Source of the DNA: Candidatus Saccharimonadota bacterium
GTDB lineage: Bacteria > Patescibacteriota > Microgenomatia > UBA1406 > GWC2-37-13
Reading direction: 5' to 3'
Length of the DNA: 32,000 bases
Assembly: GCA_001790095.1 (NCBI GenBank)
Contig: MGBH01000001.1
Span: 1,170,001 to 1,202,000 of the forward strand
The notes under the pieces were generated by a model. It was not told where the DNA came from. It saw only the letters and a list, made by a program, of their open reading frames with translations, and searched no databases. The translations under genes were made by a program, and so were the position numbers. This document shows positions 846 to 11,945 of the stretch, piece by piece; within the stretch, counting starts at the first letter, position 1, and every line of letters starts with the position of its first letter.

Positions 846-871
846 AAATGATAAAATATTATACTATTCTT

Positions 872-1417
872 ATGCATAGTAATGAAGAAAAGATAATAAA
901 GAAACTTGCAAATCGGGACGAAAGAACTCTCCTTTTGTTTTATCGAACGCATCATAAACTACTTGTTCATTTTTTTGAAAAAAAAATTGGAAAGAAAGAT
1001 GTTGCTGAAGAGTTAGCTCAGGACACATTGATAGACCTTATCGAAAATTTACGTGATTTCCGAGGGGAGTCTTCTCTTAAAACATATTTATTTTCGATAG
1101 CAAGAAATAAGATTGTGGACTACATAAAAAAGAAAAAGCTCAAAACGATCTTTTTTTCAGCTCTTCCTTTTCAAATGGTTGAAAACATAATGACAGTTTT
1201 TATGGATGATGGGATCGAAAGAAAAGAATTATCTCAAAAAATAGAGAGAGTAATTACAAAATTGCCGAATGATTATCAACTTATCATAAGACTAAAGTAT
1301 ATGGATGGGGAAAGAGTAAGAGAAATAGCAAAAAAAATGGCGTTGCCATTCAAAGCCACCGAAAGCCTTTTATTTAGGGCACGAAGGGCATTTATAAAAG
1401 CGTTTGACACAGATTAA
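872..1417 (+). CDS. ECF-type sigma-70 family RNA polymerase sigma factor
   Basis: Region 2-like segment: AEELAQDTLIDLIENLRDFRGESSLKTYLFSIARNKIVDYIKKKK. Region 4-like HTH: LPNDYQLIIRLKYMDGERVREIAKKMALPFKATESLLFRARRAFIKAF. The ORF track starts at 848. I prefer the ATG at 872 because the divergent gene's start codon ends at 845. Confidence 0.8.
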   Translation: MHSNEEKIIKKLANRDERTLLLFYRTHHKLLVHFFEKKIGKKDVAEELAQDTLIDLIENLRDFRGESSLKTYLFSIARNKIVDYIKKKKLKTIFFSALPFQMVENIMTVFMDDGIERKELSQKIERVITKLPNDYQLIIRLKYMDGERVREIAKKMALPFKATESLLFRARRAFIKAFDTD

Positions 1418-1423
1418 TCTCAT

Positions 1424-1657
1424 ATGAAATCAAATTATGCTGGTCTAAGAAATAAGATAAGAGAAGTTTATCTCGTTGAACCAAACGATCTAGGAATACC
1501 TTTGTTGACCTCTCTTTACCGCAAAGTAAACAGATATTTTAAAAAAATGCCATTCGTTATCGTTATCCCGTTGGCTTTTATCCTGGCAATAACGCTTTAT
1601 ATTTTATTTGGATACTTGGTCGTCCGTTTGGCAAGCATGCTCCAATATGGATTCTAA
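1424..1657 (+). CDS. Small single-pass membrane protein, possible anti-sigma factor
   Basis: The 77-aa ORF begins 6 nt after the sigma gene. It has a roughly 40-aa cytoplasmic N-terminus followed by one hydrophobic helix (PFVIVIPLAFILAITLYILFGYLVV). No zinc-binding HxxxCxxC anti-sigma motif is present, so the function rests on position only. Confidence 0.4.
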   Translation: MKSNYAGLRNKIREVYLVEPNDLGIPLLTSLYRKVNRYFKKMPFVIVIPLAFILAITLYILFGYLVVRLASMLQYGF

Positions 1658-2258
1658 AAACGTAGTATTCAATCTATTTGCTTCTTTTATAATCGTACTC
1701 CGGCGCTTTATCTTTCTCATCATAACCCCATATAAAACAATGAGAAAAATTTCAATGTATGGAGACTATTATCAAACAATAACTATTTTTTTAATGGTTT
1801 TTATATATTTCTTATTTGCCCATATGATGCGTGGATCTGTCATATGGGGAGGGTTTGTCTATGGTGTATTTCTCCTTCTCTTTTTCATAACCACACTCTT
1901 TTTTTATCTGTTTTCCCATGCGTTTGGTTCGGATATGAGATACATGAAGTTTATACATGCCTTTAGCTATACTCTTTTACCAACACTTATTTGGTTCATA
2001 ACAAATTTAATTTTATATATAGTACTTCCTCCTCCTCGCACCATGTCGTTTTTAGGAAAAGGATTCAGCATCTTCTTTATTGCATATTCTGTGAGTCTGC
2101 TTGTCTGGAAGCTCATTTTAGTTTATTTTGCTATCCGTTTTTCCTCGCGACTGGGGCTTTACCGAATCATATATATGTTTCTTTTTTATCTTCTTATCTT
2201 TGTTCCTCTTTCTCTTATCTTATATTACTTCAAGCTTTTTCGGGTTCCCTTCATTTGA
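1647..2258 (+). CDS. Polytopic membrane protein (Yip1-like topology), function unknown
   Basis: It has about five hydrophobic helices. The ATG at 1647 overlaps the upstream stop by 11 nt (the track start at 1608 is also possible). The Yip1-like call is a weak impression from the N-terminal ITPYKTMRKI segment plus the TM pattern. Confidence 0.5.
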   Translation: MDSKNVVFNLFASFIIVLRRFIFLIITPYKTMRKISMYGDYYQTITIFLMVFIYFLFAHMMRGSVIWGGFVYGVFLLLFFITTLFFYLFSHAFGSDMRYMKFIHAFSYTLLPTLIWFITNLILYIVLPPPRTMSFLGKGFSIFFIAYSVSLLVWKLILVYFAIRFSSRLGLYRIIYMFLFYLLIFVPLSLILYYFKLFRVPFI

Positions 2259-2298: not shown

Positions 2299-3225
2299 AT
2301 GGATATTAAACAAATATATTTAGTATCTCCCAGGGGGTTTTGTGCTGGTGTAAAAAGAGCAGTGGGTATAGTTGAAGCAGTATTAAAAAAATACGGTGCT
2401 CCCATATACATAAGACATCATATCGTACACAACGTGCATGTAGTGAAAGGCTTTGAGAGTCAAGGTGTGATTTTTATCGAAGAGCTAGAAAAAGTACCTG
2501 ATAAATCCGTTGTAGTTTTTAGCTCACATGGTAGTCCACCATCCTTATATACGATGGCAAAGAAAAAAAATCTGATCCTATATGATGCAACATGTCCCTT
2601 GGTAATAAAAGTTCATTTGGAAGCAAAACGATATGCAATGATGGGTTATTTTATTATCTACATTGGACAAAAAAATCATCCCGAAGCAATAGGGGTTTTA
2701 GGAGAAGTATCAAAGGAAAGCATAGTTCTTATTGAAAGGATAGAGGATCTAGATAAAGCTAGGATCCCAAAAAATAAAAAGAAAATTATTCTCACTCAAA
2801 CCACCTTAAGTTTTGATGATACGAAAATTCTTGTGGAACAGATTCAAAAAAAGTATCCACTCGTTATACTTCCACCAGTATTTGATATATGTTTTTCTAC
2901 CCAAAACCGGCAAAATGCAGTAAAAGCATTAGCAAGGAAAACAAAAACGATTATAGTAATTGGATCAAAGGCTAGTTCAAACAGTAATAAACTGAGATAT
3001 GTTGCTGAAAAAGAAGGGGCTAAGGCATACCTTATAGATGATGAAACTGATATTAATATCAAATGGTTTAAAAACATTGAGTCGGTTGGTATTACCGCAG
3101 GGGCATCAGCGCCGGAACAATTGGTAAAACGAGTAACAGCTTTCTTCTCAGGTGATCAAACGATTATTAAAGATATAGAAACTATTCGGGAAACAGTTGC
3201 ATTTCCCTTTCCAAAAAGCATATGA
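2299..3225 (+). CDS. ispH: 4-hydroxy-3-methylbut-2-enyl diphosphate reductase (IspH/LytB)
   Basis: The three cluster-ligand Cys contexts are present: PRGFCAGVKRA, DATCPLVIKVH and DICFSTQNRQ. Length is 308 aa. Confidence 0.93.
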   Translation: MDIKQIYLVSPRGFCAGVKRAVGIVEAVLKKYGAPIYIRHHIVHNVHVVKGFESQGVIFIEELEKVPDKSVVVFSSHGSPPSLYTMAKKKNLILYDATCPLVIKVHLEAKRYAMMGYFIIYIGQKNHPEAIGVLGEVSKESIVLIERIEDLDKARIPKNKKKIILTQTTLSFDDTKILVEQIQKKYPLVILPPVFDICFSTQNRQNAVKALARKTKTIIVIGSKASSNSNKLRYVAEKEGAKAYLIDDETDINIKWFKNIESVGITAGASAPEQLVKRVTAFFSGDQTIIKDIETIRETVAFPFPKSI

Positions 3226-4319
3226 AACATATAGTTGTGTTGGGATCTACGGGAAAAATTGGAAAAGCTGTCTTGGAGATTGTAAGGGCTTATAAAAACG
3301 AATTTAAAATTATTGGTCTCTCGACAAATAAAAATAAAGATTTGCTTAGGGAACAAATTCAAGAATTTAAGCCGCTAGCTGTAGGTGTTGGTGAAAAAGA
3401 TTTAGTTACTTTAGCTTCAATGCAACAAGCCGACATGGTAGTTGTTGCGGTTGTTGGTATGTCTGGGCTTGCTCCAACACTTGCCGCAATAAGGAAGGGT
3501 AAAGACATTGCCCTTGCCACAAAAGAAGTATTAGTTGTTGCAGGAGATCTGGTTATGAAGGAGGCAAGAAAACATAATGCTAATATCGTTCCTATTGATT
3601 CAGAGCATTCGGCACTATTTCAATCGTTACAAAGTGGAAGAAAAAACGAGATAAAACGACTTATTCTTACCATGGGAAAAGGACCGATTGCTAAGATGAA
3701 GAAGAAAGAGTTACGTAACGTAACAATCAAAGACATCCGAAATCGACCAGTATGGGATATGGGAAGCAAAATAATGATAGATAGCGCTACTTGCTTAAAC
3801 AAAAGTTTTGAGGTGATTGAGGCGCGTTGGTTGTTTGAGGTTTCTCCCGAACAAATTTCCATTGTTGTTCATCCTGAATATATTTGTCACTCGCTTGTTG
3901 AGTATAAAGATGGAAGCATTATTACAGAACTAGGTACTCCCGACATGAAACGTTATATTCAGTATGCACTTTTTTATCCTAAGAGGAAAGAGATGAGAGT
4001 TACGAAAGGAATAGACTTAGTTGGGAAAAAACTTAGCTTTGAAAAAGCACCTTTTGAAAAATTTCCCGGATTGCACTTGGGATTTGATGCAATTAAAAAA
4101 GGAGGGACAATGCCTGCAGTACTTCACGGCGCGGATGAAGCCGCTGTTAAATCTTTTTATGATGAAGAGATAGCCTTTGTTGACATACCACAGGTCATAA
4201 AAAACACAATGGATTCTCATGAGGTAACACAAAACCCTACACTAAAAAATATTCTTGAAGCAGAGATATGGGCGCAAACATATGCAAGATCTTTTATATC
4301 ACAAATGAAAAATGAATAA
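3222..4319 (+). CDS. dxr: 1-deoxy-D-xylulose-5-phosphate reductoisomerase
   Basis: N-terminal NADPH-binding motif VLGSTGKIGKAVLEI. PIDSEHSALFQ motif. It overlaps the ispH stop in ATGA. Confidence 0.93.
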   Translation: MKHIVVLGSTGKIGKAVLEIVRAYKNEFKIIGLSTNKNKDLLREQIQEFKPLAVGVGEKDLVTLASMQQADMVVVAVVGMSGLAPTLAAIRKGKDIALATKEVLVVAGDLVMKEARKHNANIVPIDSEHSALFQSLQSGRKNEIKRLILTMGKGPIAKMKKKELRNVTIKDIRNRPVWDMGSKIMIDSATCLNKSFEVIEARWLFEVSPEQISIVVHPEYICHSLVEYKDGSIITELGTPDMKRYIQYALFYPKRKEMRVTKGIDLVGKKLSFEKAPFEKFPGLHLGFDAIKKGGTMPAVLHGADEAAVKSFYDEEIAFVDIPQVIKNTMDSHEVTQNPTLKNILEAEIWAQTYARSFISQMKNE

Positions 4320-4989
4320 AACAATCTCAGTAATATTAACCGCTGCTGGTAATGGGTCAAGAATAGGAGCTCATAAGATTCTTATGTTGATTAAAGGTAA
4401 ACCCTTGATATGGTATACCTTGAAACACTTTAGTAGGGTAGAGAGAGTTGATGAAACTATTGTTGTAGCCAAACAGGAAGACTTTGAGAAACTACATTCC
4501 ATAGCAAAAGACGCTGGTATTTCAATAAAAACAGTTAAAGGAGGAAGTGAAAGGATAATTTCCGAATATAATGGTGTTATGGCTTCAAAGGGTGATTTTA
4601 TTATCACTCATGACGGATGTCGACCTTTCCCCCCCAAAAGAGTAATTGAAAACGTGATTAGTGCGGTCATAAAATATCCAGCAGTGACTGTTGGTGTGCA
4701 TCCAACAACAAGTATCAAATACAGTACTGGATCCTATATTCAAAAATCGCTCACAAGAAAATATACATACATGGGACAGACCCCACAAGGATTTAGGCGA
4801 AATATTATTATCAATGCACTTAAAAAGAATATTAAAAAGAAATTTTACATACCGACAGACGATGCTGAGTTGGTTGCCAATATGGGAATTAAGGTTAGAA
4901 TTGTTCAGGGAGATGAGGTTAATATAAAAGTCACACATCCCAAAGATGTGTTCATCGCAGAAAAAATATTAGAAGTTTATAAAGCATAA
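4312..4989 (+). CDS. ispD: 2-C-methyl-D-erythritol 4-phosphate cytidylyltransferase
   Basis: N-terminal ILTAAGNGSRIG (AAGxGxR P-loop-like motif). Length is 225 aa. It overlaps dxr by 8 nt. Confidence 0.9.
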   Translation: MNKTISVILTAAGNGSRIGAHKILMLIKGKPLIWYTLKHFSRVERVDETIVVAKQEDFEKLHSIAKDAGISIKTVKGGSERIISEYNGVMASKGDFIITHDGCRPFPPKRVIENVISAVIKYPAVTVGVHPTTSIKYSTGSYIQKSLTRKYTYMGQTPQGFRRNIIINALKKNIKKKFYIPTDDAELVANMGIKVRIVQGDEVNIKVTHPKDVFIAEKILEVYKA

Positions 4990-4992
4990 CAT

Positions 4993-5478
4993 ATGTTTAA
5001 AGTTGGAATAGGTCAAGACAGCCATAAAATTCAAAAACATACAAAATCAAAAAAACCTTTGATATTAGGCGGTGTAATCATAGATAAAAACATAGAGGTA
5101 AAGGCCGATTCGGATGGCGATATACTTATCCACAGTTTGTGTAATGCGATAAACACCGCACTAGGTTTGGGATCATTTGATATTTACGCTGGACCTTTAT
5201 GTAGGTCTGGAGTCACAGACAGTAAAGAATATCTCCTTATTGCTTCAAACAAGATTAAACAAGCAGGGTACTTGATTAGCAATATTTCAATCATGATCGA
5301 AGCAGGGTATCCTCGACTTGAAACCTACAGAAAGAAAATAGTTGCATCGCTTTCCGCGATACTACATCTTGATAAAAACAGTATAGGAATTGCCTCAACC
5401 AGCGGTGATGGTTTAACTAGTTTTGCAAAGGGAAAAGGCATCCAATGTTTTTCAATAGTTAGTCTTATGACAAAGTGA
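4993..5478 (+). CDS. ispF: 2-C-methyl-D-erythritol 2,4-cyclodiphosphate synthase
   Basis: VGIGQDSHKI and DSDGDILIHSLCNAI match the IspF metal-binding His/Asp motifs. Length is 161 aa. Confidence 0.9.
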   Translation: MFKVGIGQDSHKIQKHTKSKKPLILGGVIIDKNIEVKADSDGDILIHSLCNAINTALGLGSFDIYAGPLCRSGVTDSKEYLLIASNKIKQAGYLISNISIMIEAGYPRLETYRKKIVASLSAILHLDKNSIGIASTSGDGLTSFAKGKGIQCFSIVSLMTK

Positions 5479-6416
5479 TAAAAGCAAAGGCTTATGCAAA
5501 ATTAAATCTAAATCTTCACGTCCTGCCTGATCAAGAATATAAGCAAAAGACGGGCTATTATCCAATTCGTTTTATTAATTGTAATTTGGAATTGCATGAC
5601 GAACTATATTTTGAAGAGCAAAAAAGAACAATTGATTTTACTTGCGACGATAAAGAGCTTTCAAACGGAGATAATTTTGTCTATAAAACAGCATTTTTTT
5701 TAAAGTCTCTCATCAATGAAAAGGAACGAGGAATCAGAATTTTACTCAAAAAACATATTCCGGTTAAAGCTGGCTTGGGTGGAGGAAGCAGTGATGCAGC
5801 GACAACTTTATATTACTTATCAAGATTATGGAATATAAAATTAAATCAAAATCAAATCCATTTTTTGTTGGAAAAGATAGGAACAGACACTTTCTATTCT
5901 TATAAAGAAGGAGTTTGTGAGGTTGGTGGGTACGGAACTGAAAATACTTGTATTTTTAAAGTAAATAAAAACTGTTTTTTTCATAAAAGAAAATGTTTAT
6001 CGGTTAATAACACTGATAAAACATGCAAGTTGTCTCAAATTCCTCGGATATGGATGATATTAGTAAATCCCGAAAAGCAAAAACAATCAACTGCATGGAT
6101 GTATCATAACTTGAATCTTTCCAAAATAGGAAAGAATCTCGCTATGTATGATGCACTAAAACAAGCCATTCACAAAAAAAATAAGGGCAAGATAGTTAAA
6201 TCCGTATTTAATGATTTTGAACAGCTGGTAAAGGAAGGGGATGAAGAAACTTTGGAGATTGAAAAAAGATTATATAATATGGGAGCTGATAAAGTATTTA
6301 TTGCAGGCTCAGGACCAACTATTGTTGGATTATATTTATCTAAAAAAAAGTCGCTTGAGGCCTCTCAATATTTAAAAATTAAGTATAAACAAACTATATG
6401 GACACACACAAGGTAA
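5475..6416 (+). CDS. ispE: 4-diphosphocytidyl-2-C-methyl-D-erythritol kinase (GHMP family), with an internal insertion
   Basis: N-terminal AYAKLNLNLHV. GHMP motif IPVKAGLGGGSSDAATT. The GTG start overlaps the ispF stop (GTGA). An extra segment of about 26 aa relative to E. coli IspE is described in findings. Confidence 0.85.
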   Translation: MIKAKAYAKLNLNLHVLPDQEYKQKTGYYPIRFINCNLELHDELYFEEQKRTIDFTCDDKELSNGDNFVYKTAFFLKSLINEKERGIRILLKKHIPVKAGLGGGSSDAATTLYYLSRLWNIKLNQNQIHFLLEKIGTDTFYSYKEGVCEVGGYGTENTCIFKVNKNCFFHKRKCLSVNNTDKTCKLSQIPRIWMILVNPEKQKQSTAWMYHNLNLSKIGKNLAMYDALKQAIHKKNKGKIVKSVFNDFEQLVKEGDEETLEIEKRLYNMGADKVFIAGSGPTIVGLYLSKKKSLEASQYLKIKYKQTIWTHTR

Positions 6417-7522
6417 TGACTAGGAAAGAAACAAGGGTAGTTAAAATTGGAAAAATAAAAATTGGAGGAGGTAATTTGGTTTCAGTACAGTCGATGACAC
6501 AGACAAAGACTTATGATGTTGACTCTACTGTTAAACAGATTCATCTTCTTGAAAATGCAGGGTGTGAAATCATTCGAGTGGCAACATCGGACATGCAGTC
6601 TGCTAAAGCAATCGGCGAGATAAAGAAACAGATACATATTCCGCTCGTTGCAGATGTTCAATTTCAATATCTCTGTGCCCTTGAAGCTATAAAACAAGGT
6701 GTTGATAAGATAAGATTCAATCCAGGAAATATTGGTTCAAAGGAAAAAGTTGAAGCGATTGTCAACGCATGTAAAGATAAAAACATTCCCATACGGATTG
6801 GTATAAATATGGGTTCCCTTGAAAAGGATTTATTTGAGAAGTATGGCAAATATGGTGTTCCACGAGTTATGTTGGAGTCGGCTACCAGACACATAAAAAT
6901 ACTTGAAGATCTAAAATTTTATGACATTGTTATATCGCTTAAAGGCTCTGATGTCAATATAACAAAAGAGGCGCATTTGTTATTTGCGAGTAGGTTTAAT
7001 TATCCGTTACATGTGGGTATCACCGAAGCAGGTCCGGTTTGGAGCGGAACGATAAAAAGCGCGGTAGGTATAGGATCGATACTTTCTGAAGGAATTGGAG
7101 ATACAATAAGAGTATCAATCAGTGGCGACCCACAGGAGCAAGTACGGATTGGATGGGAAATATTGAAAACCTTGAAATTAAGACAAAAAGGAGTAGAAAT
7201 TATCTCTTGTCCAACATGTGGAAGAACAGAGATTGATCTCATCGGATTGGCTGCAAAGGTTGATACAATGCTTAAGTTGGTTGATGCCCCGATAAAAGTA
7301 GCCGTTATGGGATGTGTAGTAAACGGACCGGGGGAAGCAAGTTTTGCTGATATCGGATTATGTGGGGGGAAAAAACAAGCGGCGATAATAAAACAGGGTA
7401 GAGTGGTCAAAACCGTTCATGAAAAGGAGATGTTAAGAGTATTCATAGAGGAAATAAAAAAAGTACTCAAAGAAAAAAAATTCGAAAAGGAAATAAAAAA
7501 TATACGCAATAAATATGAATAA
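6416..7522 (+). CDS. ispG: 4-hydroxy-3-methylbut-2-en-1-yl diphosphate synthase (IspG/GcpE)
   Basis: VKIGKIKIGGGNLVSVQSMTQTKT at the N-terminus. C-terminal Cys ligands in ISCPTCGRTE and VMGCVVNGPGE. I prefer the ATG at 6416, which forms TAATG with the ispE stop. The track start at 6398 is the alternative. Confidence 0.92.
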   Translation: MTRKETRVVKIGKIKIGGGNLVSVQSMTQTKTYDVDSTVKQIHLLENAGCEIIRVATSDMQSAKAIGEIKKQIHIPLVADVQFQYLCALEAIKQGVDKIRFNPGNIGSKEKVEAIVNACKDKNIPIRIGINMGSLEKDLFEKYGKYGVPRVMLESATRHIKILEDLKFYDIVISLKGSDVNITKEAHLLFASRFNYPLHVGITEAGPVWSGTIKSAVGIGSILSEGIGDTIRVSISGDPQEQVRIGWEILKTLKLRQKGVEIISCPTCGRTEIDLIGLAAKVDTMLKLVDAPIKVAVMGCVVNGPGEASFADIGLCGGKKQAAIIKQGRVVKTVHEKEMLRVFIEEIKKVLKEKKFEKEIKNIRNKYE

Positions 7523-8432
7523 AGTTAAAGTATCAGCTCCTGGTAAATTATTGTTATTGGGAGATCATGCAGTGGTATATGGATATCCATGTTTGGTCAC
7601 CGCTGTTGATAAAAGACTGTACGTTGAGGCAAGAGTGATTGAGGCAGATAAGGATGATATAGTTACCCCTCAAGTAAAAGAGAGCAGATTTGTTTTGGAG
7701 TCTCTTGCTCATTTCAAAAAGAAATATAACATAGTTTCTTCAATCCGCATAAGAACAAAAGGTGATTTTTCGCATCGGGTCGGTCTTGGATCATCATCGG
7801 CGGTAACGGTCGCAACTTTTAAAGCATTAAGCGTACTTTTTAAGATTGATCTTACGAAAAAAGAGTTGTTTGACATGGCCTATCAAGTCACTCTACTTAT
7901 CCAGGGAGTTGGATCAGGATTTGATATTGCAGCTGCCACGTATGGTGAGACACTATACTATATTCGTGGGGGCAAGACGATTGAAACATTACCTATGAAA
8001 ACTCTTCCTTTAGTGGTTGGTTATTCAGGGATTAAAGCTGACACTCCTTTTTATATAAGGCAAGTTGCAGAGGCCTTTCGATTAAAAAAAGATGAGATGA
8101 AGCGCATATTTACCTCCATGCAGAATATAGTTGAGGAAGCAAGGGGAGCTGTTTTGAGGGGCGATATGAAAAATTTCGGGACCTGCCTTACGGCAAATCA
8201 CATGCTTTTGCAACAGCTAGGAGTGAGTACAAAAAAGCTTGATCTTATGGTGGAGGCTTCTTTAAAAAGCGGTGCTTGGGGAGCAAAACTCTCAGGAGCA
8301 GGGGGGGGAGACTGTATGATTGCGCTTGTCGATGATACTCTAAGGGGAAGCGTTGAGGATGCGATACGGAGTGTTGGTGGAAAGATAATTGAAGTACAAG
8401 TCAATACAAATGGTGTTACTATTGAAACATAA
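7515..8432 (+). CDS. mvk: Mevalonate kinase (GHMP family, archaeal-like)
   Basis: VSAPGKLLLLGDHAVVYG (motif 1). VGLGSSSAVTVA (motif 2). QGVGSGFDIAAA, which contains the catalytic Asp. KLSGAGGGDC (motif 3). It overlaps ispG by 8 nt. Confidence 0.8.
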   Translation: MNKVKVSAPGKLLLLGDHAVVYGYPCLVTAVDKRLYVEARVIEADKDDIVTPQVKESRFVLESLAHFKKKYNIVSSIRIRTKGDFSHRVGLGSSSAVTVATFKALSVLFKIDLTKKELFDMAYQVTLLIQGVGSGFDIAAATYGETLYYIRGGKTIETLPMKTLPLVVGYSGIKADTPFYIRQVAEAFRLKKDEMKRIFTSMQNIVEEARGAVLRGDMKNFGTCLTANHMLLQQLGVSTKKLDLMVEASLKSGAWGAKLSGAGGGDCMIALVDDTLRGSVEDAIRSVGGKIIEVQVNTNGVTIET

Positions 8433-8433
8433 T

Positions 8434-9432
8434 ATGCCAAATCCTAGGATGGATATGAAAAAAACAGCGCAGGCTCCATCCAATATCGCATTCGTAAAAT
8501 ACTGGGGTAAAAAAGATGAAAAATTACGTCTTCCGGCCAATGCAAACATTTCGATGAATTTGAGCAATCTCAATACTGTTACCACAGTGGAGTTTGATCC
8601 TTCATTAAAGACAGATGCAGTCTCTATTACAGACAATCAGGAGGAAAAGGCGATATCAAAAGTTGTACGTCACCTTGATAGGATACGAAACGTTGCTCAT
8701 ATAAGTCTTTATGCAAAAGTGATATCGCGCAATAACTTTCCTTCATCAACAGGACTTTCATCATCAGCCTCAAGCTTTGCAGCGCTTACTCTTGCTGCTT
8801 CTTGTTCTGCAGGATTGTCTCTTAATGAAAAAGAACTTTCCATTATGGCGCGTTTAGGTTCGGGATCCGCATGTCGGTCAATACCTGATGGGTTTACAGA
8901 ATGGTTGGAAGGAGAGGATACAAACAGTTCTTATGCAGTATCTCTTTTGCCCGCAAGTCACTTTGATATAGTTGATATAGTTGCGATTGTAAGCAATGAA
9001 AAGAAAGAGATTCCAACGACCGAAGGTCATGCTCTGGCCCAAACAAGTCCTTTTTACCAGACAAGATTAACACATATAAAGAGTAAAATTATACAGTGTA
9101 AGAAGTTTTTACACAAAAAAAACTTCACAGCACTTGGAGAACTTATCGAAAAAGAAGCTCTTGAGATGCATGCGATTATGATCACCTCATCTCCACCCCT
9201 CATCTATTGGCTTCCAACAACAGTCTCTCTTATGAAGCAGGTGCAAACATGGAGAAAAACGGGACTCGAATGTTATTTCACTATAAATACCGGTCAGGAT
9301 ATTCACATCATCTGTCGCTCAAAAGATAAAGAACGAGTGAAGGAGAAATTACAGAGTATTAAAGAAGTTAAAAGAATAATTGTCAATATTGCATCTAAGG
9401 GAGCCCATCTTATCAGCGATCATCTATTCTAA
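8434..9432 (+). CDS. Diphosphomevalonate decarboxylase family protein (atypical active site)
   Basis: APSNIAFVKYWGKKD, STGLSSSASSFAAL and ARLGSGSACRSI match MVD-family motifs. The ATG at 8434 follows the mvk stop by 1 nt (ATGs at 8449 and 8455 are also possible). The position of the classical catalytic Asp reads Asn (see findings). Confidence 0.8.
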   Translation: MPNPRMDMKKTAQAPSNIAFVKYWGKKDEKLRLPANANISMNLSNLNTVTTVEFDPSLKTDAVSITDNQEEKAISKVVRHLDRIRNVAHISLYAKVISRNNFPSSTGLSSSASSFAALTLAASCSAGLSLNEKELSIMARLGSGSACRSIPDGFTEWLEGEDTNSSYAVSLLPASHFDIVDIVAIVSNEKKEIPTTEGHALAQTSPFYQTRLTHIKSKIIQCKKFLHKKNFTALGELIEKEALEMHAIMITSSPPLIYWLPTTVSLMKQVQTWRKTGLECYFTINTGQDIHIICRSKDKERVKEKLQSIKEVKRIIVNIASKGAHLISDHLF

Positions 9433-9801
9433 TTATGGCGCGGGGGTGATTTGAGGTAATGTAATTTTAAAATCTTTACCAATGCCAAATTTTCCTCCAA
9501 GCACCGTTCCCATCACGAATGAAAAGATGGTAAAAGCAACCACAATCATAAGAAGTCCAATGACCGCATTCATCATTTTACTTTGAGCTTTTTGCAGTTT
9601 TTCTTTTTGACCTTCAGACATGATCCAGTCAAACGCTCCCCATAAAAGATAGATGAGGGTGGCGATCCCCCCGACAAATAAAGATATCTGAATAAAAAAG
9701 GTGATGAGATTACCTACTCCCTGGACCGGATCATTACCGACAAAGCTGCTGCCAGGCGGGGCATTGACTGTGCCAAAGATCTGTCTAACATCGTTATTCA
9801 T
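9433..9801 (-). CDS. TrbC/VirB2-like (type IV secretion pilin-like) small membrane protein
   Basis: 122 aa with two hydrophobic helices flanking LLWGAFDWIMSEGQKEKLQKAQSKM. This is the helix-loop-helix pattern I associate with the TrbC/VirB2-like pilins that are common in CPR genomes. The family call is from memory. Confidence 0.5.
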   Translation of the reverse strand: MNNDVRQIFGTVNAPPGSSFVGNDPVQGVGNLITFFIQISLFVGGIATLIYLLWGAFDWIMSEGQKEKLQKAQSKMMNAVIGLLMIVVAFTIFSFVMGTVLGGKFGIGKDFKITLPQITPAP

Positions 9802-10094
9802 ATAATCATCTCAATATTAAATACATATCCTAATAATTTTACAATAAGATAACTGCACAATACAATCACAAGTCCTATTGCGGCTGATGTCAGGATGCCT
9901 TGTGCTTTTTTCATGTTTTCAGGAGTTCCACCGCTTGTTATCCAAGTGAAAGCGCCTATAACAAGCATCACCAGAAAGACAAGGCCAGCTCCAACCATCA
10001 GAATTGGCGTAAGGACATTTATAATGGAACCAAGATTTGAGATGCCTGCAATAGGATTGACCGTCTTATCTGCGAAGTTAATAGCATATACCAT
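9798..10094 (-). CDS. TrbC/VirB2-like small membrane protein (paralogue of 9433-9801)
   Basis: 98 aa with the same architecture: ...LVMLVIGAFTWITSGGTPENMKKAQGILTSAAIGLVIVL.... It overlaps the downstream paralogue by 4 nt (ATGA). Confidence 0.5.
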   Translation of the reverse strand: MVYAINFADKTVNPIAGISNLGSIINVLTPILMVGAGLVFLVMLVIGAFTWITSGGTPENMKKAQGILTSAAIGLVIVLCSYLIVKLLGYVFNIEMII

Positions 10095-10168: not shown

Positions 10169-10867
10169 ATGGAAAATTCACATGTACCCTTTCATGTTGC
10201 AATAATCCCTGATGGAAATAGAAGATGGGCGAGGGAGCACGGACTACCTACCTTTGAAGGGCATAGAAGAGGATTTGAAAATATCATGAAAGTAAGCAGA
10301 AGAGCGCGTGAGATGGGAGTTCACATATTCACCATCTGGGGTTTTTCAACTGAAAACTGGAAACGTACGGTTGAGGAAGTAGGATATCTTATGAAGTTGT
10401 ATGAACAAATTATTGATACCCAATTAAAAGTAGCTCTAAAGGAGAAAACGCGAATTATTCACATGGGAAGAAAAAATAGAATCCCGAAAACTCTACTTAA
10501 TAAGATCGTAAACGCCGAAGAAAAGACAAAGCATTTTAATGAATATTATTATGCAGTAGCACTTGACTATGGAGGGCGTGATGAGATTCTTCGGGCTGTA
10601 AGCCAACTCTCAAATGTTAAATCTGATAAATTAGTTTTGAAGGAAGAGGATATTTCTCGGTTTTTGGATACAAAAAATCTTCCACAACCAGACCCTGATC
10701 TTATAATTAGAACAAGCGGTGAAGAACGGATGAGTGGATTTATGTTGTGGCAATCTGCATATGCAGAATATATGTTTGTAAAAAAACACTGCCCTGATTT
10801 CAAAGTCGCGGATTTTGAAGAATGTATAAAAGAATATAAGCTTCGGAAACGAAGATTTGGCAAATAA
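10169..10867 (+). CDS. uppS: Undecaprenyl (isoprenyl) diphosphate synthase, cis-prenyltransferase
   Basis: HVAIIPDGNRRWA motif. FSTENWKR. IRTSGEERMSGFMLWQSAYAEY. Length is 232 aa. Confidence 0.92.
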   Translation: MENSHVPFHVAIIPDGNRRWAREHGLPTFEGHRRGFENIMKVSRRAREMGVHIFTIWGFSTENWKRTVEEVGYLMKLYEQIIDTQLKVALKEKTRIIHMGRKNRIPKTLLNKIVNAEEKTKHFNEYYYAVALDYGGRDEILRAVSQLSNVKSDKLVLKEEDISRFLDTKNLPQPDPDLIIRTSGEERMSGFMLWQSAYAEYMFVKKHCPDFKVADFEECIKEYKLRKRRFGK

Positions 10868-10886
10868 CAGATAGGTCTCCTGTATA

Positions 10887-11945
10887 ATGAAAAAAGACAT
10901 GTTTAATCCAGTTTTTAACATAACAAATAAAACTTTAAATCATATAGCGAAGATTGAGGCAGCCGAGGAAGTAATACGTCATTCGCCTCTTCTTCCCCTT
11001 TGGGAAAAGCAATTCAAGGAAGATGCAATCGTTCGTTCGGCCTATCACGGGACTCATATTGAAGGAAACATGTTGCGTCAGGATGAAGCAAAAGATGTGT
11101 TGTTGGGTAAAGATGTTTTGGGAAGACCACGAGACATACAGGAAATCATCAATTATCGAAAAGTGATTGAGTTTATTGATGATGAGGCTCATAAAAAAAT
11201 CGACAAAATCACTGAGCAACTTATACAAAAACTTCATAGGATCATTACGACCAAAATCCTTACCGCCGAACAAACGGGGGAGTATAGGCTTAAACAAGTA
11301 GTTATTCGCAATTCTGCAACAGGAGAGGTTACATTTAAACCACCCGCTCCCATGGAAGTACCATTTTTAATGCGGGAATTTATTTATTGGATCAATAACA
11401 AAACAGATAGTAGCGATATCCATCCAGTCCTGCGTGCTGGTATAGCTCATCATGAGTTGGTACGCATCCACCCCTTTATCGATGGTAATGGAAGGGTTGC
11501 GCGAGTGCTTGCTACCCTCATGCTTCTTTTGGGAGGGTATGATATCAGGCGTTTTTTTTCTCTTGAAGAGCACTATGACAAAGACGCTGTTGTGTATTAT
11601 GAGAACCTAGGTAAAGCAACTACAGGCGACCTTACTGCGTGGCTTGAATATTTTACCTATGGGGCATCAATTGAGTTTTCCAAGACAAAAGACAAGATAC
11701 TTAAGCTTTCAAAAGATGTCAAACTAAAAGAAAAGATGGGTGGTCAGCAGATTTTCTTGACGGAGCGCCAGATTAAAATAGTTGAATATATTCAAGAAGT
11801 GGGCTATCTTCAAAACAAATCCTTTAGCAGTCTTTTTACCGACATATCAGAAGATTCTGTGCTTAGAGATGTTCAGGATCTGATTAAGAAAGGCATCTTG
11901 AAAAAAGTGGGAAGCACAAAATCTGCTCGTTATGTAAGCGTTTAA
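10887..11945 (+). CDS. Fic family protein (probable AMPylase) with C-terminal winged-helix domain
   Basis: Canonical Fic motif HPFIDGNGRVARVL. N-terminal THIEGN inhibitory-helix-like segment. The C-terminal portion, about 90 aa (QIKIVEYIQEVGYLQNKSF...KKGILKKVG), looks like a wHTH. Confidence 0.85.
   Translation: MKKDMFNPVFNITNKTLNHIAKIEAAEEVIRHSPLLPLWEKQFKEDAIVRSAYHGTHIEGNMLRQDEAKDVLLGKDVLGRPRDIQEIINYRKVIEFIDDEAHKKIDKITEQLIQKLHRIITTKILTAEQTGEYRLKQVVIRNSATGEVTFKPPAPMEVPFLMREFIYWINNKTDSSDIHPVLRAGIAHHELVRIHPFIDGNGRVARVLATLMLLLGGYDIRRFFSLEEHYDKDAVVYYENLGKATTGDLTAWLEYFTYGASIEFSKTKDKILKLSKDVKLKEKMGGQQIFLTERQIKIVEYIQEVGYLQNKSFSSLFTDISEDSVLRDVQDLIKKGILKKVGSTKSARYVSV

Follow-up and report, generated by a model that had tools for sequence, protein, structure and literature searches.

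Why an operon for the pathway through 2-C-methyl-D-erythritol 4-phosphate (the MEP pathway) should end in two genes of the mevalonate pathway is the question raised by a locus in the Candidatus Saccharimonadota bacterium assembly GCA_001790095.1 (contig MGBH01000001.1, positions 1 170 001 to 1 202 000). We refer to this whole stretch of 32 000 nucleotides as the window; unless another locus is named, coordinates are those of the window. The operon, ispH-dxr-ispD-ispF-ispE-ispG-mvk-mvd, is in our view probably (about 0.7) a hybrid that arose by in situ non-homologous displacement of the upper mevalonate genes by an MEP cassette, mvk and mvd being holdovers. Hoshino & Gaucher (2018) reported the mevalonate pathway in Microgenomates and found MEP genes to be sparse in the candidate phyla radiation (CPR), the two routes being usually mutually exclusive (PMC6107057). 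No joint MEP/mevalonate operon is described in that study, and we found no description of such a hybrid locus in the literature on mevalonate, MEP or remnant pathways in Roizmanbacteria and Patescibacteria.

Exact-sequence matches of the MVK and IspG proteins assign this groundwater bacterium to Candidatus Roizmanbacteria, and its gene content, pilin-like genes included, suits a member of the CPR/Microgenomates. The operon was delimited from the listing of open reading frames (ORFs) and from profile searches; ORFs of at least 100 residues outside it were profiled with Pfam, and families were judged against the curated NCBIfam/TIGR cut-offs. All eight genes are co-directional on the plus strand and span 2299-9432.

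2299-3225, plus strand: ispH, 4-hydroxy-3-methylbut-2-enyl diphosphate (HMBPP) reductase, which opens the MEP cassette; PF02401 E = 3e-87, TIGR00216 296 bits against a cut-off of 188
3222-4319, plus strand: dxr, reductoisomerase of DXP (1-deoxy-D-xylulose 5-phosphate); TIGR00243 377 bits against a cut-off of 316, Protein Data Bank (PDB) entry 6mh4 E = 3e-87
4312-4989, plus strand: ispD, MEP cytidylyltransferase; PF01128 E = 1e-42, TIGR00453 164 bits, under the cut-off of 181
4993-5478, plus strand: ispF, 2-C-methyl-D-erythritol 2,4-cyclodiphosphate (MEcPP) synthase; TIGR00151 119 bits against a cut-off of 116
5475-6416, plus strand: ispE, 4-diphosphocytidyl-2-C-methyl-D-erythritol (CDP-ME) kinase of the GHMP family, 313-residue type; TIGR00154 138.0 bits against a cut-off of 138.7, borderline
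6398-7522, plus strand: ispG, HMBPP synthase, which closes the MEP cassette; PF04551 E = 8e-143
7515-8432, plus strand: mvk, mevalonate kinase; TIGR00549 200 bits against a cut-off of 163
8434-9432, plus strand: mvd, mevalonate (di)phosphate decarboxylase homologue; TIGR01240 255 bits against a cut-off of 171

The module leading from DXP to isopentenyl diphosphate (IPP) and dimethylallyl diphosphate (DMAPP) is complete, with Dxr, IspD, IspE, IspF, IspG and IspH all matching their families. Four of the six MEP proteins pass the NCBIfam equivalog cut-offs, with IspD and IspE marginally under theirs, and a positional orthologue of ispE is present in all MEP cassettes. Dxr (365 residues) aligns to solved DXP reductoisomerases in two pieces and is about 10-20 residues short in the N-terminal NADPH-binding domain, a short form (~361-367 residues) that is common to the Dxr proteins of Roizmanbacteria cassettes. 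The junctions consist of overlaps of 4, 8, 4, 19 and 8 nt and gaps of 3 and 1 nt; the 19 nt overlap shrinks to 1 nt with an alternative ispG start, the 3' end of ispG overlaps the mvk start by 8 nt and the mvk-mvd gap is 1 nt. The mvd ORF spans 8389-9432 and opens with TTG at 8389, the likely start being the ATG at 8434, one base past the mvk stop. These coordinates and the Pfam/NCBIfam profiles confirm the gene identities, order and tight junctions that had been proposed for the eight-gene block in a sequence-only reading of the same DNA. The GC and third-position GC (GC3) contents of the MEP genes fall inside the range of the window. A scan for promoter and terminator consensus sequences performed at chance level (31 promoter-like sites against 30.8 expected) and is uninformative on co-transcription or on a promoter before mvk.

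The origin of the arrangement is indicated by synteny. Loci around related MVD genes, designated here by L numbers, were fetched and annotated by tblastn and Pfam; the window MVD is 60-67% identical to Microgenomates MVDs. Three of the loci (L085, L015 and L023) have the same flanks as the window, with a sigma factor and an ORF of about 200 residues upstream and two pilin-like genes, uppS and a Fic gene downstream; the downstream flank of L085 continues with ABC transporter genes, SOD, TrmD and Clp. Between these flanks all three carry HMGR-HMGS-AACT(thiolase)-DUF35-second GHMP kinase-MVK-IDI-MVD, which is the Microgenomates mevalonate operon in full. The window has its six MEP genes in precisely the interval that runs from HMGR to the second kinase in these relatives, and it also lacks the IDI gene between MVK and MVD. 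The window MVK and MVD are 74 and 65% identical, respectively, to their orthologues in the complete operon of L085. Because the MEP genes occupy the place of HMGR to the second kinase between the same flanks, mvk and mvd are, as judged from gene order, the tail of the resident mevalonate operon and not additions to an MEP operon; the other genes of the mevalonate route appear to be absent, displaced at this locus, rather than relocated. We also considered whether the last two genes might belong to other GHMP subfamilies unrelated to mevalonate, and found that both have true orthologues in the Microgenomates operon, namely its MVK and MVD. We looked for a fusion scar of a deleted second kinase at the ispG/mvk junction and saw nothing other than three extra IspG codons.

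Microgenomates-type mevalonate genes are also carried by metagenome-assembled genome records titled 'uncultured Gammaproteobacteria bacterium' (L006-L008, L010, L014-L019, L025, L028 and L029); most hold the full operon, some with the sigma factor, ORF and uppS flanks, and their labels look wrong.

The conserved flanks of the window comprise the following genes.

848-1417, plus strand: ECF-type sigma-70 factor, conserved upstream flank; Pfam Sigma70_r2/r4_2
1608-2258, plus strand: conserved ORF of 216 residues, the last gene ahead of the switch point; no Pfam family at E <= 0.001
9433-9801 and 9798-10094, minus strand: two small genes resembling pilins of type IV secretion systems (T4SS), convergent with mvd; PF18895, same position in relatives
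10169-10867, plus strand: uppS, undecaprenyl diphosphate synthase, a consumer of IPP; PF01255 E = 1e-70, syntenic in relatives
10887-11945, plus strand: Fic-domain protein, the best-conserved marker of the locus; PF02661

The sigma factor is syntenic in L006, L011, L015, L023, L029, L085, L088, L091, L172 and L174-L176, which include mevalonate-type and MEP-type loci. Orthologues of the 216-residue ORF, which at a laxer threshold has a weak Yip1 match (E = 0.0019, under the cut-off), are 45-60% identical and stand at the same position; the gene that follows is HMGR in mevalonate-type relatives and ispH in the window. The Fic protein is 76-88% identical in L015, L022, L023, L029, L085, L087, L088, L091 and L172. 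The uppS gene starts 737 nt past mvd, in agreement with the distance of about 0.7 kb given by the sequence-only reading. UppS of the window (10169-10867) is 54% identical to that of L085 (11734-12426), against 88% for the adjacent Fic proteins, which suggests that divergent uppS alleles may have been exchanged by recombination. A trans-prenyl diphosphate synthase gene lies between uppS and fic in L085 (12423-13424) and L087 (3120-3785). No such gene is present in the 32 kb of the window, where the uppS-fic gap is 19 nt (10867-10887), so that it is not apparent from the window where UppS obtains its allylic primer.

The sequence-only reading had suggested surveying related genomes for the same gene order. 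That survey revealed an MEP cassette with variable mevalonate leftovers at the same locus in eight lineages. In each the cassette is ispH-first, and the lower mevalonate genes that remain differ as follows.

L171: second kinase, MVK, IDI and MVD
L088: second kinase, MVK and MVD
L091/L173: MVK, IDI and MVD
Window: MVK and MVD
L176: second kinase and IDI
L172: second kinase only
L174 and L175: none

No upper mevalonate gene lies within 10 kb in any of these MEP-type loci (0/8). That related lineages have lost each of the lower genes shows that every one of them can be lost and that mvk and mvd would be dispensable. The window IspG is 69-84% identical to at least 119 other proteins among the matches listed, and the named ones belong to Roizmanbacteria, Curtissbacteria or Patescibacteria. 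Other Microgenomates carry dxr-ispD-ispF-ispE-ispG-ispH-IPPS-uppS as a single block at another place in the genome; one MEP block, which the earlier reading took to be unusual, is thus the normal arrangement in MEP-bearing Microgenomates. A metagenome scan with IspG (low-complexity peptide patterns) returned mostly IspG proteins ~54-60% identical, many on human-gut contigs, and only L091 and L092 were useful.

Several features of the cassettes and of neighbouring genes vary among the lineages. Two types of IspE, 40-48% identical, occur in otherwise alike cassettes: one of 310-313 residues in the window (5475-6416), L088 and L091, and one of 288 residues in L171 (2165-3031), L172 (9153-10019) and L176. 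The presence of two divergent types in alike cassettes suggests gene-level mosaicism inside the MEP cassette. A YjbQ/UPF0047 gene, absent from the window, lies inside the cassette after ispH or dxr in four lineages (L088 6357-6818, L174 7527-7982, L175 6351-6812 and L176 6025-6483). At 2302-5902 of L091/L173, genes for a zinc-finger protein, a 301-residue ORF and a TrwB/VirD4-like coupling protein (~743-801 residues, minus strand) lie between the upstream ORF and ispH, an insert that may be what a conjugative element left at the switch point. In L022 (3499-7520), a Roizmanbacteria locus with a complete mevalonate operon, a lone divergent GcpE/IspG homologue (351 residues, 37% identical to the window IspG) lies together with a 699-residue methyltransferase-domain protein between DUF35 and the second kinase.

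The window contains no dxs, HMGS, HMGR, second kinase, isopentenyl phosphate kinase (IPK) or idi gene: none turned up in the Pfam profiling of the other ORFs, in tblastn searches that used a relative's mevalonate-operon proteins as queries or in a motif scan for DXS and IPK; the same absences, with phosphomevalonate kinase (PMK) in the place of the second kinase, had been stated in the sequence-only reading and are borne out. HMGR, HMGS, AACT and DUF35 of L023 gave no tblastn match in the window. The motif scan of all fetched loci detected no DXS, and IPK only beside MVK and PMD (phosphomevalonate decarboxylase) in Chloroflexi loci; among the genes adjoining extra NUDIX/IDI copies in L013 and L025, Pfam identified no IPK. 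Among the 120 best matches to the second kinase of L085, no orthologue from this genome is present and that of L171 (48% identity) is listed. The classical MVK-PMK-MVD chain is probably broken in this genome, given that none of these 120 matches is a second kinase of its own.

To place the switch on a phylogeny, a neighbour-joining tree was calculated from the concatenated sigma, ORF, UppS and Fic proteins of the flanks (909 columns, 300 bootstraps). MEP-type and mevalonate-type loci are interleaved on this tree: the sister pairs window and L085, L172 and L023, and L088 and L015, each with 100% bootstrap support, all join an MEP-type with a mevalonate-type locus. A tree of upper mevalonate genes groups L085, L015 and L023 weakly. 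Mosaicism extends to other genes of the locus, with two IspE types, two MVD types and very divergent UppS alleles. We conclude that cassettes and gene alleles have probably been exchanged or sorted repeatedly at this locus. Among the loci examined, none carries both cassettes.

Several results weigh against displacement of upper mevalonate genes with mvk and mvd as holdovers. The tree of MEP genes, ((window,L171),(L172,L088)),L175,L091,L174, is roughly congruent with the flank tree, a pattern that equally fits repeated replacement, switches in the reverse direction (MEP to mevalonate) or reciprocal loss after an ancestral stage in which both cassettes were present, and so would allow switches of differing direction and number. 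For the entry to the MEP route, dxs was found neither in the window nor within 10 kb (or up to the nearer contig end) of any fetched MEP-type locus, and the searches for HMGR, HMGS, IPK and idi covered the 32 kb window out of about 1.2 Mb of genome. Four of the eight MEP-type lineages retain MVK and MVD jointly and the other four are without both, so that the pair may still be selected for. The window MVK is unchanged at ~37 columns, and MVD at ~39, that are invariant in 30-32 complete-operon orthologues. Tajima relative-rate tests against L085, the mevalonate-type sister, are not significant (p = 0.06-0.9), with 21-30 unique changes in the window against 16-21 in L085 for MVK and 27-36 against 23-29 for MVD. 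The synonymous distance (dS) is saturated in every pair, and the nonsynonymous distance (dN) is 0.20 for mvk and 0.29 for mvd, compared with 0.09 for fic and 0.40 for uppS; with dS saturated, the dN/dS values of ~0.1-0.2 are upper bounds only. L001-L004 are 100% identical to the window DNA and provide no polymorphism for a population test. The retained genes look constrained or only recently orphaned, and mvk and mvd may still be selected for some use.

Both proteins look enzymatically intact. The best PDB match of MVK is the Methanosarcina mazei enzyme (6mde), and the two align at Lys, His, motif II and Asp, which we take to be the catalytic positions. The closest solved structure to MVD is 6n0x (301 bits, against 219 for classical mevalonate diphosphate decarboxylase, MDD), which is the Anaerolinea PMD (PMC9254496); on the NCBIfam PMD model NF040704 the protein scores 184 bits against a cut-off of 475. 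By the residue criteria of Dellas 2013 (PMC3857490, Table 4) its phosphate site is mixed. The Lys21 position is Lys, as in MDDs, PMDs having Asn or Leu there (PMC3857490); Ile27 is replaced by Arg, which is PMD-like; Ser139 and Ser141 are kept; Ser192 is replaced by Thr; and Arg193 is replaced by Thr as in the Anaerolinea PMD. The position of the catalytic Asp (Asp283 in Staphylococcus epidermidis), described in the literature as conserved throughout the decarboxylases of the MVD family, is Asn285 in the window MVD (within the motif FTINTGQD; residues 285-289 are encoded at 9286-9300). This variant is common to many Microgenomates MVDs (L085, L087, L015, L005-L012 and others), in which an Asp follows four residues on (FTINTGQD versus FTxDAGPN); both motif types are found in complete mevalonate operons, the Asn variant in those of L085 and L015. 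In the case of SsoDMD, the enzyme of Saccharolobus solfataricus, the D281N mutant is still active (PMC9254496). Given that mutant and the presence of the Asn variant in complete operons, the window MVD is probably active. A side observation concerns a 4.4 kb contig labelled Pseudobdellovibrionaceae (L042), where at 255-2386 dxr is directly followed by an MVD homologue 46% identical to that of the window, a juxtaposition outside the CPR. The second GHMP kinase of the Microgenomates operon is presumed to be the PMK and scores as MVK-like on the NCBIfam models (TIGR00549 152-168 bits), not as PMK-like.

What, then, could keep the pair in place? The sequence-only reading offered salvage of host mevalonate, a partial alternative branch or a new substrate; none of these gives the origin of the arrangement, for which synteny points to replacement in situ. 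In a working salvage route MVK and MVD, the latter acting as a PMD, would make isopentenyl phosphate from mevalonate of the host or environment, and an unlinked IPK would convert it to IPP beside the MEP pathway; the displacement origin would still hold and the pair would be kept by selection. The bit scores relative to the Anaerolinea PMD, the two PMD-like phosphate-site positions (Arg at Ile27 and Thr at Arg193), the persistence of MVK and MVD without the second kinase in the window and L091, and the retention of all family-invariant residues with no rate acceleration in either protein speak for this route, as does the report of IPK homologues in Microgenomates regardless of other mevalonate genes (PMC6107057). 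Against it stand the MDD-like Lys21 position, the low score on the NCBIfam PMD model, the lack of an IPK in the window, in the fetched Microgenomates loci (motif scan) and beside IDI in L013/L025, and the four of eight MEP-type lineages without MVK and MVD; nor is a mevalonate transporter evident. The differing subsets of lower genes in related lineages, which include none at all, likewise argue against MVK and MVD as a conserved salvage module. We therefore hold working salvage to be doubtful. The same tentative standing applies to a combined proposal, in which the locus is a recombination-driven switch with upper-mevalonate and MEP cassettes as alternative alleles and, in addition, MVK and the PMD-like MVD are selected for salvage from mevalonate to isopentenyl phosphate.

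Recruitment of the retained GHMP enzymes to a task outside the mevalonate pathway, such as the recycling of isoprenoid monophosphates or the phosphorylation of another hydroxy acid, would fit the intact state of the window MVK and MVD and the fate of the second kinase, which stands alone in L172 (11125-12042) and with IDI in L176 (10711-11667) and between these two shows a dN of 0.27 with dS saturated, a sign of constraint without MVK or MVD. It is nevertheless improbable: relative to complete-operon orthologues the window MVK and MVD are substituted at neither the invariant nor the substrate-site positions and hence show no sign of an altered pocket, and patchy retention suits optional genes better than a new essential role. 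That both routes are complete, with HMGS, HMGR, thiolase, the second kinase and IDI encoded elsewhere in the genome, is conceivable insofar as 32 kb of about 1.2 Mb was read and bacteria with both routes make up 2.4% of surveyed species (PMC13001223); relatives hold these genes exactly where the MEP genes now sit, however, none of the eight MEP-type loci keeps an upper gene within 10 kb and no second-kinase orthologue of this genome is among the best 120 matches, which makes this very improbable. An assembly or binning artefact joining the genes of two organisms, considered because the sequence derives from metagenome assemblies, was rejected as next to impossible. DNA 100% identical across the junction occurs on contigs of 7 kb to 208 kb in independent ENA, JGI and Logan samples; the same proteins are on a 1.2 Mb contig, five other lineages carry their own diverged hybrid loci, and ispG and mvk overlap by 8 nt.

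Under the displacement reading that we prefer, the ancestral Microgenomates locus would have consisted of the sigma factor, the ~200-residue ORF, HMGR-HMGS-AACT-DUF35-second kinase-MVK-IDI-MVD, the pilins, uppS and fic. In a subgroup of Roizmanbacteria the six-gene cassette ispH-dxr-ispD-ispF-ispE-ispG would have taken the place of HMGR-HMGS-AACT-DUF35, and in this genome the second kinase and IDI would have been deleted further, which may explain why ispG overlaps mvk and why mvk lies 1 nt from mvd. We infer that the operon is expressed as one transcript, from which the six MEP enzymes, as the working route, would turn DXP (presumably supplied by an unlinked source) into IPP and DMAPP for the UppS encoded just downstream. 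IDI would be superfluous, since IspH yields the two of them. MVK and MVD would be co-expressed holdovers that could at most process imported mevalonate, since without the HMG-CoA enzymes they cannot support synthesis de novo.

Textbooks present the two routes to IPP as alternatives; their patchy distribution is usually ascribed to lateral transfer and loss, and stages in between are seldom observed. In the present case the replacement can be followed directly at one locus with constant flanks, a swapped cassette and old lower genes that range, among sister lineages, from four kept to none. That MEP genes can move as a single operon goes against a recent general statement (PMC13001223). The lineages form a natural series for asking which lower-pathway enzymes serve outside their pathway, and metabolic reconstructions of CPR genomes that rely on MVK or MVD as marker genes would wrongly call a mevalonate pathway in this genome.

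The locus can be compared with four known systems. With the bacterial MEP pathway it shares all six post-DXS enzymes, matched at the family level, here in one packed operon that behaves as a replaceable cassette and to which dxs is not linked. With the mevalonate operon of Microgenomates it shares the locus and flanks, including the cis-prenyltransferase gene uppS, and its MVK and MVD are orthologous to the last genes of that operon; it differs in having six MEP genes instead of HMGR, HMGS, the archaeal-type thiolase, DUF35, the second GHMP kinase and IDI. The alternative mevalonate route of haloarchaea and Chloroflexi (MVK, PMD and IPK; PMC3857490) likewise combines MVK with an MVD-family decarboxylase without a phosphomevalonate kinase, and the window decarboxylase resembles PMDs in being closest to the solved Anaerolinea enzyme and in its Arg and Thr at the Ile27 and Arg193 positions. 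It departs from that route in that no IPK is seen in the window, whereas the Chloroflexi IPK adjoins MVK and PMD, in the MDD-like Lys21, in the Asn at the catalytic Asp position and in the lack of an upper pathway. Like bacteria with one complete and one partial route, such as Listeria with its truncated MEP pathway (PMC13001223), the window holds a complete route and a fragment of the other; unlike in those cases, the fragment is on the mevalonate side and in the same operon as the complete route, and sister lineages display its loss gene by gene. What is new is a variant arrangement of known pathways rather than a new kind of system, and it affords a rare direct view of pathway replacement.

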